A DNA stretch of 42,262 nucleotides, from the NCBI GenBank assembly GCA_964368775.1, contig CAYJCX010000002.1:1-42262 (forward strand), given 5' to 3'. The notes below the pieces were generated by a model. That model saw only the letters and a program-made list of their open reading frames with translations, was not told the DNA's origin and searched no databases. This DNA comes from an uncultured Candidatus Saccharibacteria bacterium. GTDB taxonomy: Bacteria > Patescibacteriota > Minisyncoccia > Phycocordibacterales > UBA9973. A program made the translations under genes and the position numbers. Shown here in pieces: positions 2,066 to 42,225 of the stretch (position 1 is the stretch's first letter; every line of letters begins with the position of its first letter).

Positions 2066-3505
2066 TTAACCTAGATCAAATGGATCAAAATCTACTGTGT
2101 CTAATAAATCTTGCGCGTTTTGTATGTCTTCTTCTTGTGGAGACATAAATGCAAATTGTTTTTTAAGCATAAAGAATCCTCGCATAATGAAAGCATCCCC
2201 ATAATCGGGTGATCTTCCTAGTTCTGCTTTCATTTCATCTTTAGGAATAAGGGCCATCTTAACAGTATCATTATCCGGATTCTTAATTCGATACAGTGAA
2301 AGCTCCTGGTTAAACTCTTCATAGAATTGCATATCTTCTTCCATTGGAATTGATATAGCTACTTCATGGCGCTCGGTTAATTTAGCCATAACCCATGCAC
2401 ATTGGGTTTTAAGATTAGAAAAGTTTTGTTTCTCTAGATACTCATAGCGTGCATCTTCATTTTCTAATGGGGTTGAATTGTTTATAAATCCATATACACC
2501 AGTACATAAATCAACTACACCGCCGCCTACTCCGTCTTCATCAATAATGATATGGCTATATGGGATATTCTCAGTACGTGCATAGTCTTTTAGTTTTTGG
2601 GCTGTAACTTTAATATCTTGTTTTTGATAAACAACTTTTTTATATAGCTGCAAACCTTTCCAGAAATAGAAAACTGTTTTGTCATCTCCAAAGCGGGCCA
2701 CATCCACAGTCATGTATTTATCTTGTTCTCTAACAGTTGTTAGGGTATTAGACCAAAGATCATTAATAGGATCAAAGCCAAATAGTGTTCCGGCTACTGA
2801 ATCATATTCCCAGTTACCATCTTTAAGACGATCTCTAAGTGTTTTATCTTTTAGATTAGAAAGAGATCTTTCATATAAGGCGGATGTATGTTGGTTATCT
2901 CCGTAAAGTGCTTGAATGAAAGCATACCCAGCAGGTAGTAAATTATTCTTTGCGGGTAAATAAAAAACAGAATATGTCCAGTTCTTTTTTGGGTTTCCAG
3001 TTAATGCAAGCGTTGGGCGGATTTTAAATTCATCATTTTTATGACGGCCTACACGAGATTTAAGAACATCAAAGGCGCGAAAATCTATTTCTCCACATTC
3101 TTCCATAGCACCATCAGTATATTCGGATGATCCAAATCGTTCATAAAGCGGATCGGATGGTGCGTATTTAACATCAAGTAAATCAATACGTGATCCATTA
3201 GTAAATTCTATGTAGTGATATTGGCCGTTTAGTTTCCAGTGGACTCCTTGTTTTATATTATGAAAAGCACAGACTTTAACCCAAGTCTGGTATGTAGAAC
3301 CCATAAGGCGTGTTAATTCTTCACGAGCAATGAAAGATTTATAGCCTGGATATGCTAGAGCATTTATTAGTCTTGATTCACAAAGCCACCAAGACTTTCC
3401 TCCGCCGGCTCCTCCACCAAAAAATACATAGTCGTTACTCTTTAATGCTTGATACGCTTCGTATTGTTTCTTCGTAGGTCGTATTGTAACTGTCTGTTCC
3501 TCCAT
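2066..3505 (-). CDS. terL: terminase large subunit
   Basis: 479 aa. N-terminal Walker A-like FFGGGAGGGKSWW. C-terminal-half acidic nuclease-type motif VDVARFGDDKTVF. Flanked by the small-terminase candidate and the portal candidate. Confidence 0.9.
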   Translation of the reverse strand: MEEQTVTIRPTKKQYEAYQALKSNDYVFFGGGAGGGKSWWLCESRLINALAYPGYKSFIAREELTRLMGSTYQTWVKVCAFHNIKQGVHWKLNGQYHYIEFTNGSRIDLLDVKYAPSDPLYERFGSSEYTDGAMEECGEIDFRAFDVLKSRVGRHKNDEFKIRPTLALTGNPKKNWTYSVFYLPAKNNLLPAGYAFIQALYGDNQHTSALYERSLSNLKDKTLRDRLKDGNWEYDSVAGTLFGFDPINDLWSNTLTTVREQDKYMTVDVARFGDDKTVFYFWKGLQLYKKVVYQKQDIKVTAQKLKDYARTENIPYSHIIIDEDGVGGGVVDLCTGVYGFINNSTPLENEDARYEYLEKQNFSNLKTQCAWVMAKLTERHEVAISIPMEEDMQFYEEFNQELSLYRIKNPDNDTVKMALIPKDEMKAELGRSPDYGDAFIMRGFFMLKKQFAFMSPQEEDIQNAQDLLDTVDFDPFDLG

Positions 3506-4213: not shown

Positions 4214-4789
4214 TTAGTCATGGGGATTGTGTGAATATGTGGGGATAACCCGACTTTTTACTGCTAACATGCCACGATCTGCCAGTGCATGATGATTAGG
4301 ACAAAGTAAAGCTAGGTTTTCTATATCATCAGTTCCACCCTTATGTCTAGGAATAATATGATGGACTTCAACTACTTCATCAAAACTACATATAAAACAT
4401 TTACTACCATACATTTGATGTAAGTAACCATATTTCCCAGCTAATTTTAATTGAAATATTTTCTTCTTTTTTTCTTCTTTTATTTCTACTTTTACTTCGG
4501 GTGTTGGATCTAGATATTTTGTAAGATCCTTATATTTTTCTAGTAAAAATTGGAATCTATTATCACTTTCACTTTTATGAATTGAATGGATTACAGTAGT
4601 GTGATCCCTGTTTAAAATCTTTGCTATCCTAGGGTATGAAAGGAAATTAGCCCTACAAAGAGAAATAAACAAATCTCTTGCTTTAACTACTTCAATATCT
4701 CTTGCAGGGCTACTAATTTCTTCCTTAGTAAATCCAGTTTCCATAAAAACTATCTTAAAAACAACCTCTTTTATTTCGTCTATTCGCAT
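4214..4789 (-). CDS. DnaA C-terminal-domain-like HTH fused to an HNH endonuclease
   Basis: 191 aa. The N-terminal SSPARDIEVVKARDLFISLCRANFLSYPRIAKILNRDHTTVIHSIHK matches the DnaA domain IV signature (compare ...ARQIAMYL...IG..FG.RDHTTVLHA). The C-terminal CFICSFDEVVEVHHIIPRHKGGTDDIENLALLCPNHHALADRG is a complete HNH zinc-finger nuclease motif. Confidence 0.8.
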   Translation of the reverse strand: MRIDEIKEVVFKIVFMETGFTKEEISSPARDIEVVKARDLFISLCRANFLSYPRIAKILNRDHTTVIHSIHKSESDNRFQFLLEKYKDLTKYLDPTPEVKVEIKEEKKKKIFQLKLAGKYGYLHQMYGSKCFICSFDEVVEVHHIIPRHKGGTDDIENLALLCPNHHALADRGMLAVKSRVIPTYSHNPHD

Positions 4790-12248: not shown

Positions 12249-12392
12249 CTATTCTTCTAATGGTTCGACCTTAGTTGGTTTAGGTTTGTTTTTCTTTTGA
12301 ATTATAGATTTGCCGTATCTTTGTGCTTTGGGAACATTATTTCTTAGGATATTGCGCGCCTTTTCGTAGCTCTTTCTTTTTGCTGTTTTCAT
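12249..12392 (-). CDS. 47-aa basic peptide (tentative)
   Basis: ATG at 12392 and TAG at 12249-12251. MKTAKRKSYEKARNILRNNVPKAQRYGKSIIQKKNKPKPTKVEPLEE. Confidence 0.3.
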   Translation of the reverse strand: MKTAKRKSYEKARNILRNNVPKAQRYGKSIIQKKNKPKPTKVEPLEE

Positions 12393-39630: not shown

Positions 39631-40701
39631 TTAGCTATTAGTTGCAAAAGAATAAACGATACCTTGTGGGTTTACCACACAAAGGCCGTAGCCTGCGCGG
39701 ACAGCAAAGCGGTATATATCTTTTGAGAAATCGACCGCATTGTTATCTTGTGTAGGAGCTGGCTTCATATGTGGAGCTTCCCATTCTGCGTACATCGCCC
39801 AAAAACGATTCATAGGTACATCGCCCTCGAAAGCACCGATACCCCAGTAGTTAGACTTCGCAGTATTACGTTGTCCATTTACAGTTGTATCTAGTTGTTC
39901 TAGAACAAGCATCTTGTAACGGTTCTTGTAAGTGTTTTCTACATTAGGGTTAGCCTGTGTGTTGTCAGAGATAGAACGCAAGAATTGCATTATAGCTTCT
40001 GTAACATTTGGGTTTCCTGAACAGAAAATGTGTGAGAAACGCTTTGAACGTGGAATACCGTAGTTATCTAGAGTATTGTTACGAGCAATTGTTTCTGCTG
40101 AAATCAAACCTGATTTAGAAAACTGTGGGTTTCCTGGAACAATGTTTGTGTAAGTTGTAGCACTGAAAGCTAGTGTGTGAGCTGCGTTAGCAATTGATAG
40201 GCCGTCTCCGGTTGTTGTATCAATTGTATAACCATCCATATCAACATATGATGTACTTGCTGCAAAAGTTACTGCAAGTTGTGTCATATCAAGGTTAATA
40301 CGTTGTGGAGCTGTTTCACCTAGATCGATACCAATAGCTTTAACATCCATCCAACGGTCGAACATTATTGCTTCGTAAGTTAGATCTAGTTCTTTAGCGA
40401 TACGCTTTAGAGAAACATCTTTGTGATAACCGATACCAAATTGAGCCTTAGCTGCTGCTACGCCCTCTGGCTTTGTACTAGCGAAAGTAGAGAAATCTCT
40501 TTCGTTATATCTACGGATATTACCACTGTGTAGTGGTACTGATTCTTTGATGAAAAGTGGCTTTGCATCCCATGGGTATTTTTCGCCGACTTCGGAGAAT
40601 TTCTTAGCTACGAGGTCATAGATCTCGCTAAAGCTAAATGTTGCCATGAATGAGGAGCTATTTCCTGGGTTTGGCTCGTTTGAGCCTGATGGAACTGACA
40701 T
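39631..40701 (-). CDS. major capsid protein (HK97-fold type, putative)
   Basis: 356 aa. Its position follows portal / 222-aa / decoration-like genes. It is followed by a strong hairpin, and its size and composition are typical. Not verified by profile search. Confidence 0.6.
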   Translation of the reverse strand: MSVPSGSNEPNPGNSSSFMATFSFSEIYDLVAKKFSEVGEKYPWDAKPLFIKESVPLHSGNIRRYNERDFSTFASTKPEGVAAAKAQFGIGYHKDVSLKRIAKELDLTYEAIMFDRWMDVKAIGIDLGETAPQRINLDMTQLAVTFAASTSYVDMDGYTIDTTTGDGLSIANAAHTLAFSATTYTNIVPGNPQFSKSGLISAETIARNNTLDNYGIPRSKRFSHIFCSGNPNVTEAIMQFLRSISDNTQANPNVENTYKNRYKMLVLEQLDTTVNGQRNTAKSNYWGIGAFEGDVPMNRFWAMYAEWEAPHMKPAPTQDNNAVDFSKDIYRFAVRAGYGLCVVNPQGIVYSFATNS

Positions 40702-40724: not shown

Positions 40725-41141
40725 TTAACTTGTTAGAAGCGCACGAACTTCAACCAAAGTAGCTGAAATGAAACGTGTAACTTCGAACTGTACACCTGCG
40801 CCTGATACATCTAATCCATAAGAATCAGAGTAAACATTAAAAGGTAGACCGACCATGGCTGCTGTTGCAGTACCATTAGTAACCGGCATTAGCCAACGGT
40901 CTGTACCGTCAACAATACCATCGTATGAAATGTCTTTTGTAGAAGCGTAGTCTGTATCTGTAGATGCGACTACTTCTAAACATAGACCTAGAACTGGGTT
41001 TGCCCCAGCAGCTAGGGGTTTGATATATCCTGATCCATCATATTCAACCCACATACCAATAGCGAAAGCAGTAGATGCTTTCTTTGGTGCAGTTTGGATA
41101 TTTTCGATAAGAATATGTCTTTGACTTTTTGTAACTGGCAT
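40725..41141 (-). CDS. head decoration-like protein (DUF2190-like pattern, tentative)
   Basis: 138 aa directly upstream of the capsid gene, with Gly/Val/Ala-rich beta-type periodicity. Confidence 0.35.
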   Translation of the reverse strand: MPVTKSQRHILIENIQTAPKKASTAFAIGMWVEYDGSGYIKPLAAGANPVLGLCLEVVASTDTDYASTKDISYDGIVDGTDRWLMPVTNGTATAAMVGLPFNVYSDSYGLDVSGAGVQFEVTRFISATLVEVRALLTS

Positions 41142-41180: not shown

Positions 41181-41219
41181 CAAAAATAGGCAAGAACCTA
41201 CTTTCGTACTGTTCTTGCC
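41181..41219 (-). terminator. intrinsic terminator ending the leader RNA, 40 nt upstream of the capsid-operon ATG
   Basis: The minus strand reads GGCAAGAAC-AGUACGAAAGUAG-GUUCUUGCC (9-bp perfect stem) followed by UAUUUUUG. Confidence 0.7.
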
Positions 41220-41346
41220 TGGGCTGTTAGCTTCTTGGCCTAGATGGCTTTCTGCTTTGCGTACGGGGCGACCGTCCGATTTCAGGTGTGGATGTTTGGA
41301 TTCGGAGTATTCCCCTATCCGTATAGCGAGTCCTCCCGGACACGAT
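41182..41346 (-). ncRNA. ~165-nt structured leader / small RNA between the late promoter and its terminator (unknown class)
   Basis: Bounded by a TTGTAC-N17-TATACT promoter and the terminator. It is locally GC-rich. The 5' hairpin GUAUAUCGUGUCC-GGGA-GGACUCGCUAUAC has a GNRA loop. A second hairpin is GGAUAGGGG-AAUA-CUCCGAAUCC. Confidence 0.5.
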
Positions 41347-41352
41347 ATACAT

Positions 41353-41381
41353 AGTATAAAGAAATAAAATAAATTGTACAA
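41353..41381 (-). promoter_or_regulatory. sigma70-type promoter TTGTAC-N17-TATACT (candidate late/capsid promoter)
   Basis: The minus strand reads TTATCCACATGTTGTACAATTTATTTTATTTCTTTATACT. The -35 is at 41381-41376 and the -10 at 41358-41353. Confidence 0.55.
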
Positions 41382-41383
41382 CA

Positions 41384-41392
41384 TGTGGATAA
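41384..41392 (-). promoter_or_regulatory. perfect DnaA box (TTATCCACA), 2 bp upstream of the -35 hexamer
   Basis: Plus-strand TGTGGATAA at 41384-41392. Confidence 0.6.
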
Positions 41393-41396
41393 ATAT

Positions 41397-41419
41397 AAAA
41401 GCCCTATCTAGGGGCTTTT
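41397..41419 (-). terminator. intrinsic terminator (second of a tandem pair after the packaging operon)
   Basis: AAAAGCCC-TATCTAG-GGGCTTTT. On the minus strand the stem is followed by UUUUAUAUUU. Confidence 0.6.
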
Positions 41420-41474
41420 ATATTTAATCTGTTGAAGATGTTACGATATTTTTCATATTTAAAGTATATAACAC

Positions 41475-41503
41475 AAAACCCCGGACAGCAATGTCGGGGT
41501 TTT
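41475..41503 (-). terminator. intrinsic terminator (first of a tandem pair after the 222-aa gene)
   Basis: The minus strand reads AAAACCCCGAC-AUUGCU-GUCCGGGGUUUU followed by GUGUU. Confidence 0.6.
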
Positions 41504-41556: not shown

Positions 41557-42225
41557 TTACTCTTCTTGGGCTTTTTCAACATTGAAATAATCACTCATTT
41601 CATTGCCGGTTTGTTCTCTAACTTTCATTAGTGCTGCGGTTAGATCAGTGTATAGGGCATATGTAGAATCATATCTGCCTGTACCTGGGTTCTTTGCGCC
41701 AAATAGACGAGACATCATTTCGTGGCGGTGGCCAACTACTTGTTTCATTGTGTATTCGTCAAATGCAGTAACGATTAGTTTAAGAGAATCAAAGATATGT
41801 TTGTATTCCCCTGTTCCAATGTTATTTGCATTTAGAATAGTGAATATATCTATAGTTACCCTTTCGAAAGTCTTATTAATTTCTTCTTCGTCTGCTGGAG
41901 TAGCATTAATAAGATTGATCTTAGCTAATTGTTCGCCGTTATTAGCAAATAGATTTAACAATTGGGCGATTGCTGGCAAAGCACGTTTGTCTTTGTGGCC
42001 ATCGTAGTCAAATTTAGGTTTTGCTGAATAAACTGGATCTGTTTCTAGCTTCTTAATAGCCTTTGCGCGGATAACTTTACCTAATTCGGATGGTTCTGCT
42101 AATTGAGCATCTTGGAATATCTGATTAGCGCGGTCTACTATAGCTTCTTCGTCTGTTAGTCCCTCATCACGGGCTTGGTCGTGAGAACAAGATAATAGTG
42201 CTGGGATGAAATATTTATCTTCCAT
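41557..42225 (-). CDS. hypothetical protein at the scaffold position (function unknown)
   Basis: 222 aa. It would lie directly downstream of the portal gene if the window ends are joined. The sequence is helical and acidic, and no motif was recognised. Confidence 0.3.
   Translation of the reverse strand: MEDKYFIPALLSCSHDQARDEGLTDEEAIVDRANQIFQDAQLAEPSELGKVIRAKAIKKLETDPVYSAKPKFDYDGHKDKRALPAIAQLLNLFANNGEQLAKINLINATPADEEEINKTFERVTIDIFTILNANNIGTGEYKHIFDSLKLIVTAFDEYTMKQVVGHRHEMMSRLFGAKNPGTGRYDSTYALYTDLTAALMKVREQTGNEMSDYFNVEKAQEE

Follow-up and report, generated by a model that had tools for sequence, protein, structure and literature searches.

The window analysed here is the whole stretch of 42,262 nucleotides (nts) of contig CAYJCX010000002.1 (GenBank assembly GCA_964368775.1, filed under an uncultured Candidatus Saccharibacteria bacterium), and its source is a divergent tailed phage. 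Directly upstream of the capsid genes of this phage, on the minus strand, lies a leader of about 165 nts that ends in an intrinsic terminator. Comparison with related phages indicates that this leader is a real structured RNA with a conserved fold under selection for pairing, and defines it well as a new structured RNA family. We assign a probability of roughly 55% to the reading that it acts as a cis-acting conditional antiterminator, that is, a conditional-termination leader, for the structural (late) operon. All genes in this part of the window are carried by the minus strand, and the element reads from position 41503 down to 41141. The features of the leader are, from 5' to 3':

41181 to 41346, minus strand: predicted leader transcript, about 165 nts if terminated, with the 5' end placed from the -10 hexamer and the 3' end from the U-tract.
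41327 to 41344, minus strand: hairpin P1, CGUGUC/GACUCG with a fixed U-U mismatch and loop L1 CGGGAG (41338-41333), obtained by RNAalifold on a plain MAFFT alignment.
41298 to 41320, minus strand: variable hairpin P2, closed by an invariant GG/CC; its third pair covaries (CG in 7 sequences, AU in 6, UA in 1).
41290 to 41299, minus strand: conserved CCAAAC and then the pseudoknot 3' strand UCC (41292-41290), which pairs with GGA of L1 (41336-41334).
41283 to 41287, minus strand: strand ACCUG of helix K, between the pseudoknot and P3, mimicking the bottom of the terminator 3' arm.
41260 to 41278, minus strand: hairpin P3, CG-G-ACGGU-CGC-CCCGU-A-CG with an internal mismatch, found without manual help, with double changes in 5 of 7 pairs.
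41229 to 41256, minus strand: P4, a stem AGC/GCU around the hairpin GCC-AUCUA-GGC, from the comparative alignment.
41223 to 41228, minus strand: single-stranded AACAGC (consensus AAYAGY) between P4 and the terminator, near-invariant in all homologues.
41217 to 41221, minus strand: strand K' CAGGC, made of the last two linker nts and the first three nts of the aligned 6-nt terminator-arm core GGCAAG.
41181 to 41220, minus strand: leader terminator, with a 10-base-pair (bp) stem, an inner 3-bp stem with a GAAA cap, and a U-rich tail (41187-41181); hairpin 41220-41188, -18 kcal/mol, z-score -5.6.

To collect homologues, about 150 relatives of the capsid protein were found in public assemblies and the DNA around 13 of them was taken. 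Together with the window and two copies from a DNA pattern scan of metagenomes, these loci gave 16 distinct leaders, from uncultivated phages whose capsid proteins are 50-96% identical to that of the window. All of the leaders are placed between a variable upstream gene and a decoration-like gene followed by the capsid gene, and in every homologue a terminator stands at the leader end, 20-51 nts before the start codon. Promoter, RNA, and terminator are conserved jointly across the 16 phages, and with compensatory changes in 16 homologues the element is beyond chance. An earlier prediction, made from the letters of the window (hereafter the original prediction), had proposed a promoter-proximal structured leader in a locally GC-rich segment, with a terminator that must be overridden. 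The joint conservation, and the absence in these phages of any conserved promoter between terminator and start codon, bear out this layout, and the GC content is indeed 53% in 41200-41349, compared to 25-38% in the flanks.

The fold emerges from comparison of these sequences. In an unedited MAFFT alignment, RNAalifold recovered P1 and P3, with compensatory changes in 9 of 13 pairs; on a structure-guided alignment, it returned P1, P2, P3, P4, and the terminator unaided. In the latter alignment, 94.5% of cells form a standard pair (80.9% in shuffles) and 19 of the 31 pairs are changed on both sides, compared to a shuffled mean of 8.6; a count of 19 was reached in none of 500 shuffles. When the partners were moved by 1-3 columns as a control, 32-47% of cells were paired. 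Covariation among related phages had been proposed as a check on the predicted helices, and the compensatory changes in the 16 homologues support them.

Examination of the individual helices revealed how freely their sequences vary. The pair types seen in P1 are CG/UA/GC, UA/GC/AU, and CG/UA. Its position 3 is mismatched in all sequences but one (U-G), and the mismatch is A-A in two phages in which the whole helix has been swapped to UGAGGC/GCCACA. P2 is optional, with 0-27 nts among the homologues, and is absent in L033. In the pseudoknot, every cell pairs in 15 sequences and all six columns covary, with strands as different as GGA/UCC in the window, UGAUCG/CGAUCA in L023, GGAUA/UAUCC in L046, GAGAA/UUCUC in L044, and CCGUGU/AUACGG in L042. 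P4 shows at least five pair types at its first two pair positions and three at the third, and its interior is highly variable. The A-rich junction strands (ACGG, CCAAAC, AAAUCG, ACG, and AAYAGY) are near-invariant. An alternative pseudoknot, between L1 (NGGG) and CCUN, was rejected in favour of the one beside CCAAAC and of the K/terminator pairing, since 78% of its cells pair, which is no better than the helix slid by one column.

A covariance model built from the 5' two-thirds of 15 sequences, with L047 held out, found the held-out sequence with an E value of 1.6e-11. L047 keeps every helix with new pair types (A-U at P1 pair 1, GGAGA/UCUCC in the pseudoknot, and CCAUC/GAUGG in P4). Moreover, G-U pairs are tolerated only as read on the minus strand, which points to an RNA read in this direction and away from a DNA element. 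When the leader body was folded as a single sequence, the result was not significant (z -0.75) and the 5' fold was a different one; the comparative model is preferred. The 13-nt hairpin ACGGUCGCCCCGU, originally described as GNRA-capped, has no such cap, and the GAAA loop belongs inside the terminator.

The 3' domain (41283-41223 in the window) occurs in two arrangements. In the window type, ACGCAA follows right after P3 and extends it by CG/CG. In L024, L001, L033, L042, and L047, the corresponding (A/G)CG(C/G/U)AAY lies within the P4 internal loop, after an extra GNRA hairpin, where the same CG/CG pairing would cross P4. On the aligned sequences, the two forms look like a strand permutation.

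A coding function for the leader region was rejected, because a sense open reading frame (ORF) spans the element in just 3 of 15 homologues and the length differences of P2 are not multiples of three. The 72-aa ORF found here, which had been thought unlikely to be coding, is not conserved in the homologues, and a GUG-initiated frame is also broken in one of them (L029, by eye). A scan for a known RNA family, another check that had been proposed, gave none: no Rfam 15 family reached its threshold in the window, and nothing was found on the RNA in 9 homologous loci. Among the Rfam matches up to E 10, none lies over the leader body, and two chance-level ones (E > 1) touch only the terminator or the 3' half. 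A DNA pattern scan for the RNA core returned only the already found contig in IMG/VR and two true copies in JGI metagenomes. One narrow pattern gave no true copy in the 185,579 bacterial and archaeal species genomes of GTDB, where its three matches were chance hits in GC-rich DNA without leader context. The covariance model detected no second copy in the 42-kb window and no homologue in loci with capsid proteins 32-41% identical, and literature searches yielded no description of this leader element. Upstream of the leader in L044 (1088-1225, minus strand), there is a sub-threshold Rfam match to the Bacteroides small RNA (sRNA) BTnc231 (41.6 bits, gathering threshold 80.4, E 3.9e-5), which may be terminator-driven similarity or a faint clue to the host.

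The leader terminator is the strongest intrinsic terminator on the minus strand of the window, and its stem covaries. A stem and U-tract terminator shortly before the decoration ATG had been anticipated; the stem has 10 bp, and the ATG at 41141 lies 39 nts past the U-rich tail. A terminator scan found no other intergenic terminator in 41141-15839, the 25-kb operon. In the 16 phages, the gap between terminator and ATG is AT-rich and has neither a Shine-Dalgarno sequence nor a conserved -10 element. A promoter in this gap, including one of leaderless type, was considered and rejected, a good -10 hexamer being present in just 3 of 16 phages.

Helix K connects the fold to this terminator. It is a nested helix and forms the closing stem of a three-way junction whose other arms are P3 and P4. 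The three core pairs of K are kept in 15/15, 15/15, and 14/15 sequences (44 of 45 cells), with double changes from CG to UA in L023 and L044 and from UA to CG in L025 and L034, whereas slid versions are at most 47% paired. An unbiased search for complements of the terminator base singled out K as the one consistent site in the aptamer (13 of 15), and the held-out L047 has ACCU/AGGU as K. The alignment columns of K' (160-163) are also paired in the terminator in the RNAalifold consensus, and the 10-bp terminator stem of the window begins one base before the aligned core, at A41220. Since K and the terminator share alignment columns, the folded domain and the terminator base exclude each other. 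Overlap of a candidate aptamer helix with an intrinsic terminator is a feature that the leader appears to share with ON-type riboswitches. Overall, support for helix K from the aligned sequences is moderate. The original prediction had named another competitor, GGCCAAGAAGC, as an alternative partner of the terminator 3' arm. This segment is present at 41240-41230, but only in the two closest relatives does its pairing with the 3' arm exist, and constrained folds do not select it; K (ACCUG) is the conserved competitor instead.

Four further features lie between the preceding gene and the leader:

41471 to 41503, minus strand: first upstream intrinsic terminator, the end of the preceding operon; hairpin and U-tract, -15 kcal/mol, z -3.6, also detected in the terminator scan.
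41391 to 41421, minus strand: second upstream terminator hairpin, -12.4 kcal/mol, z -2.9.
41384 to 41392, minus strand: DnaA-type box, a perfect TTATCCACA, 2 bp upstream of the -35 hexamer.
41353 to 41381, minus strand: sigma70-like promoter, TTGTAC (41381-41376), 17 nts, TATACT (41358-41353), read from the sequence.

The two tandem terminators and the perfect DnaA box stand as originally described. For the promoter, the hexamers and their spacing are as stated, but the term near-consensus is not justified: 8-9 of 12 consensus positions match (the scan scores an overlapping reading at 9/12), and a consensus scan found promoter-like sites in the region to be no commoner than in shuffled sequence. 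A good -10-like hexamer is located 6-22 nts upstream of P1 in most homologues, and TATAAT is found about 30 nts upstream in two more. The promoter is credible because a TATAAT-like hexamer is conserved just upstream of the RNA in most homologues. From the position of the -10 hexamer, transcription would start near 41346.

We propose the following mechanism. Host RNA polymerase would start at the sigma70-like promoter beside the DnaA-type box and transcribe a domain of about 125 nts. The 5' half of this domain would form an H-type pseudoknot between the P1 loop and the bases after CCAAAC, with the optional P2 between them, and the 3' half would form a three-way junction of the short closing helix K with P3 and P4, joined by the conserved A-rich strands. 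The 3' strand of K would at the same time provide the first bases of the 5' arm of the strong terminator. By default, the terminator would win (about -18 kcal/mol against a helix of 3-5 bp), an RNA of about 165 nts would be released, and the decoration, capsid, and tail genes would remain off. An effector that stabilises the folded domain would let K hold the terminator-arm base, so that the hairpin could not reach the U-tract and polymerase would enter the 25-kb operon. As no conserved promoter follows the terminator and two terminators stand in the way of transcription from upstream, expression of the operon seems to require read-through.

Several points weigh against this proposal. The start site, termination, its relief by read-through, and the identity of the effector are all inferred from sequence, and the promoter is assigned by consensus and conservation only. 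The pairing statistics given above overstate independence and significance, because the alignment was adjusted to the structure and the 16 sequences come from related phages. Helix K has just 3-5 bp, its register was fixed manually in three sequences, and the partner of K in L034 falls immediately before the terminator instead of within it. No classical long antiterminator emerged from constrained folding, nor did a consistent partner for either terminator arm. Finally, no candidate effector protein was identified among about 45 ORFs searched against Pfam, PHROGs, and PDB sequences, where Q, N, NusG, CAT, PRD, and RNA polymerase families had no match; such a search has limited sensitivity in a divergent phage, and the window lacks about 3 kb of the genome.

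The genes around the leader are as follows:

Ending at 41557, minus strand: 222-aa ORF, which precedes both upstream terminators.
40725 to 41141, minus strand: capsid decoration/cement-like protein, 138 aa, the first gene proposed as regulated; structure model with a predicted local distance difference test score (pLDDT) of 92.5.
39631 to 40701, minus strand: major capsid protein, 356 aa, HK97 fold by Foldseek.

The best fold matches of the 138-aa model are capsid accessory proteins of HFTV1, Sf11, Pam3, BB1, and TW1 (E 1e-4, template modelling score about 0.6). The 356-aa product matches HK97 and many other phage capsids (Foldseek E 5e-12, probability 1.0), and Pfam Phage_capsid_4 is matched by 4 of 31 homologues of this protein. 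Judged from these models, the two genes 3' of the leader are capsid genes, in agreement with their original assignment. Elsewhere in the window, there are a large terminase subunit (2066-3505), a UvsX-like recombinase, NinG- and RusA-like nucleases, and an endolysin-like protein. The uncharacterised products include several large proteins, one of which, with 2631 aa, had no match in Pfam, PHROGs, or PDB sequence searches. Neither BLAST of the region nor tblastn of the capsid protein gave a match among 50,697 GenBank phage records. None of the 16 phages has a Shine-Dalgarno-like sequence before the decoration-like gene, the 25 nts upstream being merely AT-rich; this absence is a sequence-level clue to a host that may rely little on Shine-Dalgarno sequences.

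By gene order, the leader separates the structural operon from a variable accessory block upstream. The variable block contains genes with Pfam matches to Tad2-like (PF11195) in L021 (201-452) and L044 (1-103); Tad2 is an anti-Thoeris protein. In L033, a gene for a 675-aa glycosyltransferase-like protein occupies the variable upstream position.

The box upstream of the leader promoter has counterparts in the window:

41392-84, 15191-83, 14766-58, 8488-80, 4852-44, and 4840-32, sense orientation: six TTATCCAC(A/T) (TTATCCACW) boxes, within or beside intergenic or promoter regions.
4214 to 4789, minus strand: fusion of a DnaA domain IV helix-turn-helix and an HNH endonuclease, 191 aa (Pfam Bac_DnaA_C, E 1.6e-14).

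The putative site TTATCCACA matches the 9-mer consensus of DnaA boxes, TTATNCACA. Six boxes of this kind compare with 1.2 expected, and six were reached in 0 of 100 shuffles; 9 of the 16 homologues carry the box, or a version that deviates by a single base, upstream of their leader. The DnaA_C-HNH gene lies upstream of the terminase gene, and two of the six boxes are directly upstream of the DnaA_C-HNH gene. Either this phage protein or host DnaA may recognise the boxes. Their recurrence, alongside a phage protein with the DNA-binding domain of DnaA, hints at an additional level of control that acts at promoters. Also noted, downstream of TTATCCAC boxes, were two promoters that are almost identical (TTTACTTGCT..TTGCTGGTTGCTATAAT), at about 14766-14700 and about 8488-8424 on the minus strand. 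In both, TATAAT stands just 6-7 nts before an ATG (MSIKKEAG... and MLDSFCNREHH...), a spacing that suggests leaderless mRNAs.

More distant relatives were inspected as well. L009 (1981-2360), L010 (2265-2544), L014 (1924-2357), and L015 (2006-2467), with capsid proteins 32-37% identical, have long intergenic regions before a gene of about 140 aa and the capsid gene. The covariance model gives no hit in these regions, which often contain, besides a TTATCCACA box and a promoter, a GC-rich structured stretch of a different kind and a terminator. In this group, capsid operons may generally be under leader control, with the RNA itself replaced, and because distant relatives have different structured leaders at the same position, leader-based capsid control could be a general and overlooked theme. 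In L005 (2358-2529), L006 (2381-2520), and L008 (2388-2527), regions of about 140-170 nts contain GUUAUC..GAUAAC and CGGAG..CUCCG hairpins followed by CCCAAAAAC, with no terminator. The resemblance to P1, P2, and CCAAAC may be coincidental, or these regions could be reduced relatives of the leader.

Given a conditional antiterminator, an RNA-binding factor encoded or induced by the phage is the effector that we tentatively favour, since the RNA is confined to one clade, its 3' half occurs in two permuted forms, and distant relatives have different leaders. A clade-confined RNA and replaced leaders suit co-evolution with a protein better than a universal metabolite. With just one terminator to pass, processive antitermination is not needed, and direct action on polymerase would be a far-fetched route. 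One ORF of the window, at 12249-12392 on the minus strand, encodes a very basic 47-aa product (MKTAKRKSYEKARNILRNN...KKNKPKPTK) with no family match, and is a candidate for an arginine/lysine-rich RNA-binding peptide.

A metabolite is an unlikely effector, and with it an orphan ON-type riboswitch is an unlikely explanation of the leader. Here the domain would be an aptamer for a small molecule, for example a nucleotide-related signal of replication or host state, whose binding stabilises K and lets polymerase pass the terminator. The size and complexity of the domain are typical of aptamers (a pseudoknot, a three-way junction, and near-invariant A-rich junction strands), and, as in the pbuE adenine switch, its closing helix shares bases with the terminator 5' arm. 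However, the RNA is limited to one phage clade and one genomic context, the narrow pattern scan of GTDB gave no true copy, distant relatives have quite different leaders at the same position, and known riboswitch classes do not match it. If this explanation were true, a phage-specific riboswitch class without a bacterial counterpart would time the whole capsid and tail operon and control virion morphogenesis.

Somewhat less probable still is a stand-alone, trans-acting sRNA of about 165 nts, which would titrate a host protein or pair with host or phage mRNAs, while the capsid genes would be expressed through leaky read-through or from an unrecognised polymerase or promoter. An own promoter, a very strong terminator, a compact and conserved fold, and the lack of a long antiterminator would all be expected of such an RNA. 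AAYAGY followed by a hairpin and a U-tail weakly resembles the 3' ends of Hfq-type sRNAs, and the uncharacterised large proteins, including the one of 2631 aa, leave room for a phage polymerase. On the other hand, the most abundantly needed genes of the phage follow in the same orientation, within 20-51 nts, in all 16 phages, with no conserved promoter between, and the two upstream terminators block entry from the preceding operon. The covarying overlap of K and the terminator would be purposeless in a free sRNA.

It is very improbable that the element is constitutive and has no switch, with a fold that stabilises or insulates the 5' end and a terminator that attenuates at a fixed level, so that a constant fraction of transcripts reads through. 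Although nothing in the sequence proves conditional termination, and structured 5' ends can protect mRNAs, a never-relieved terminator of -18 kcal/mol before the major capsid gene would be costly, and the conserved junction bases, the pseudoknot, and the K/terminator overlap exceed the needs of a stabiliser hairpin.

Should the conditional antiterminator model be right, the timing of capsid and tail genes in this phage clade relies on an RNA device rather than on classic late activators or a Q-type antiterminator. The compact cassette of promoter, leader, and terminator would then offer a route to the effector, either a new phage RNA-binding antiterminator or a new ligand.

Processive antitermination, in which a protein loaded at the promoter (lambda Q type, with the RNA incidental) or the RNA itself (HK022 put type) modifies polymerase, is the least credible explanation and is best judged against those systems. 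Lambda Q acts through a DNA site and a sigma-dependent promoter-proximal pause, and needs no conserved RNA fold. The late promoter and the short terminated RNA just before structural genes do resemble lambda PR'-qut-6S RNA-tR', the analogy first drawn for this locus. In contrast to that system, pairing in the RNA is under selection, no Q-like protein was found in the scanned ORFs, a single terminator has to be passed, and the alignments show no evident, conserved -10-like pause element in the early part of the transcribed region. Lambda N/nut consists of boxA, a boxB hairpin, and the arginine-rich N protein. In the leaders, GNRA loops occur at different helices in different homologues with no constant GNRA-like hairpin, and neither N-like nor NusG-like families were found in the scanned ORFs.

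HK022 put is a double hairpin of about 65 nts, present in two copies after early promoters, that makes polymerase processively terminator-resistant (PMC8632103, which also gives an overview of Q). Like put, the leader is a phage-encoded, cis-acting structured RNA just after a promoter and could overcome termination. Unlike put, it is present in a single copy, belongs to a late operon, and has a different fold, with a pseudoknot and a three-way junction, that the terminator physically overlaps; the 25-kb operon holds no further intergenic terminator to read through, and a constitutive put-like RNA would render the adjacent conserved terminator pointless. A 2023 survey described thousands of phage structured-RNA candidates without assigned function, with covariation and consistently upstream of phage genes, of which five are upstream of a major capsid protein family and 1,241 contain terminators (PMC10690425). 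Since a single IMG/VR contig carries the leader, its inclusion in that survey is unlikely. Of the three analogies originally offered for this locus (lambda Q, put, and a riboswitch), those with Q and put are not supported, and a riboswitch-like, or protein-dependent, antiterminator fits best.

Two known systems come closer. In the adenine switch pbuE (ydhL), the closing helix shares its 3' strand with the terminator, where this strand begins the 5' arm. Like such ON-type riboswitches, the leader has a conserved domain directly before an intrinsic terminator, and its stabilised fold would prevent termination. It differs from the riboswitch classes in Rfam 15 in that it has no sequence or structure similarity to them, combines a pseudoknot with a three-way junction, and is found in one phage clade upstream of capsid genes. 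The ribonucleic antiterminator (RAT) is a hairpin of about 30 nts bound by a CAT-domain protein (BglG/SacY/LicT). As in RAT/BglG, a weak RNA structure overlaps the terminator by a few bases and would win only when bound by its factor. Unlike RAT, the leader domain is about 125 nts long and includes a pseudoknot, and the scanned phage ORFs yielded neither a CAT/PRD protein nor any other known RNA-binding antiterminator. By analogy, and with no homology to either, the logic of the leader thus appears closest to that of ON-type riboswitches such as pbuE or of antiterminators that a protein stabilises, as in RAT/BglG: the RNA family is new, and the kind of regulatory logic that it uses is known.

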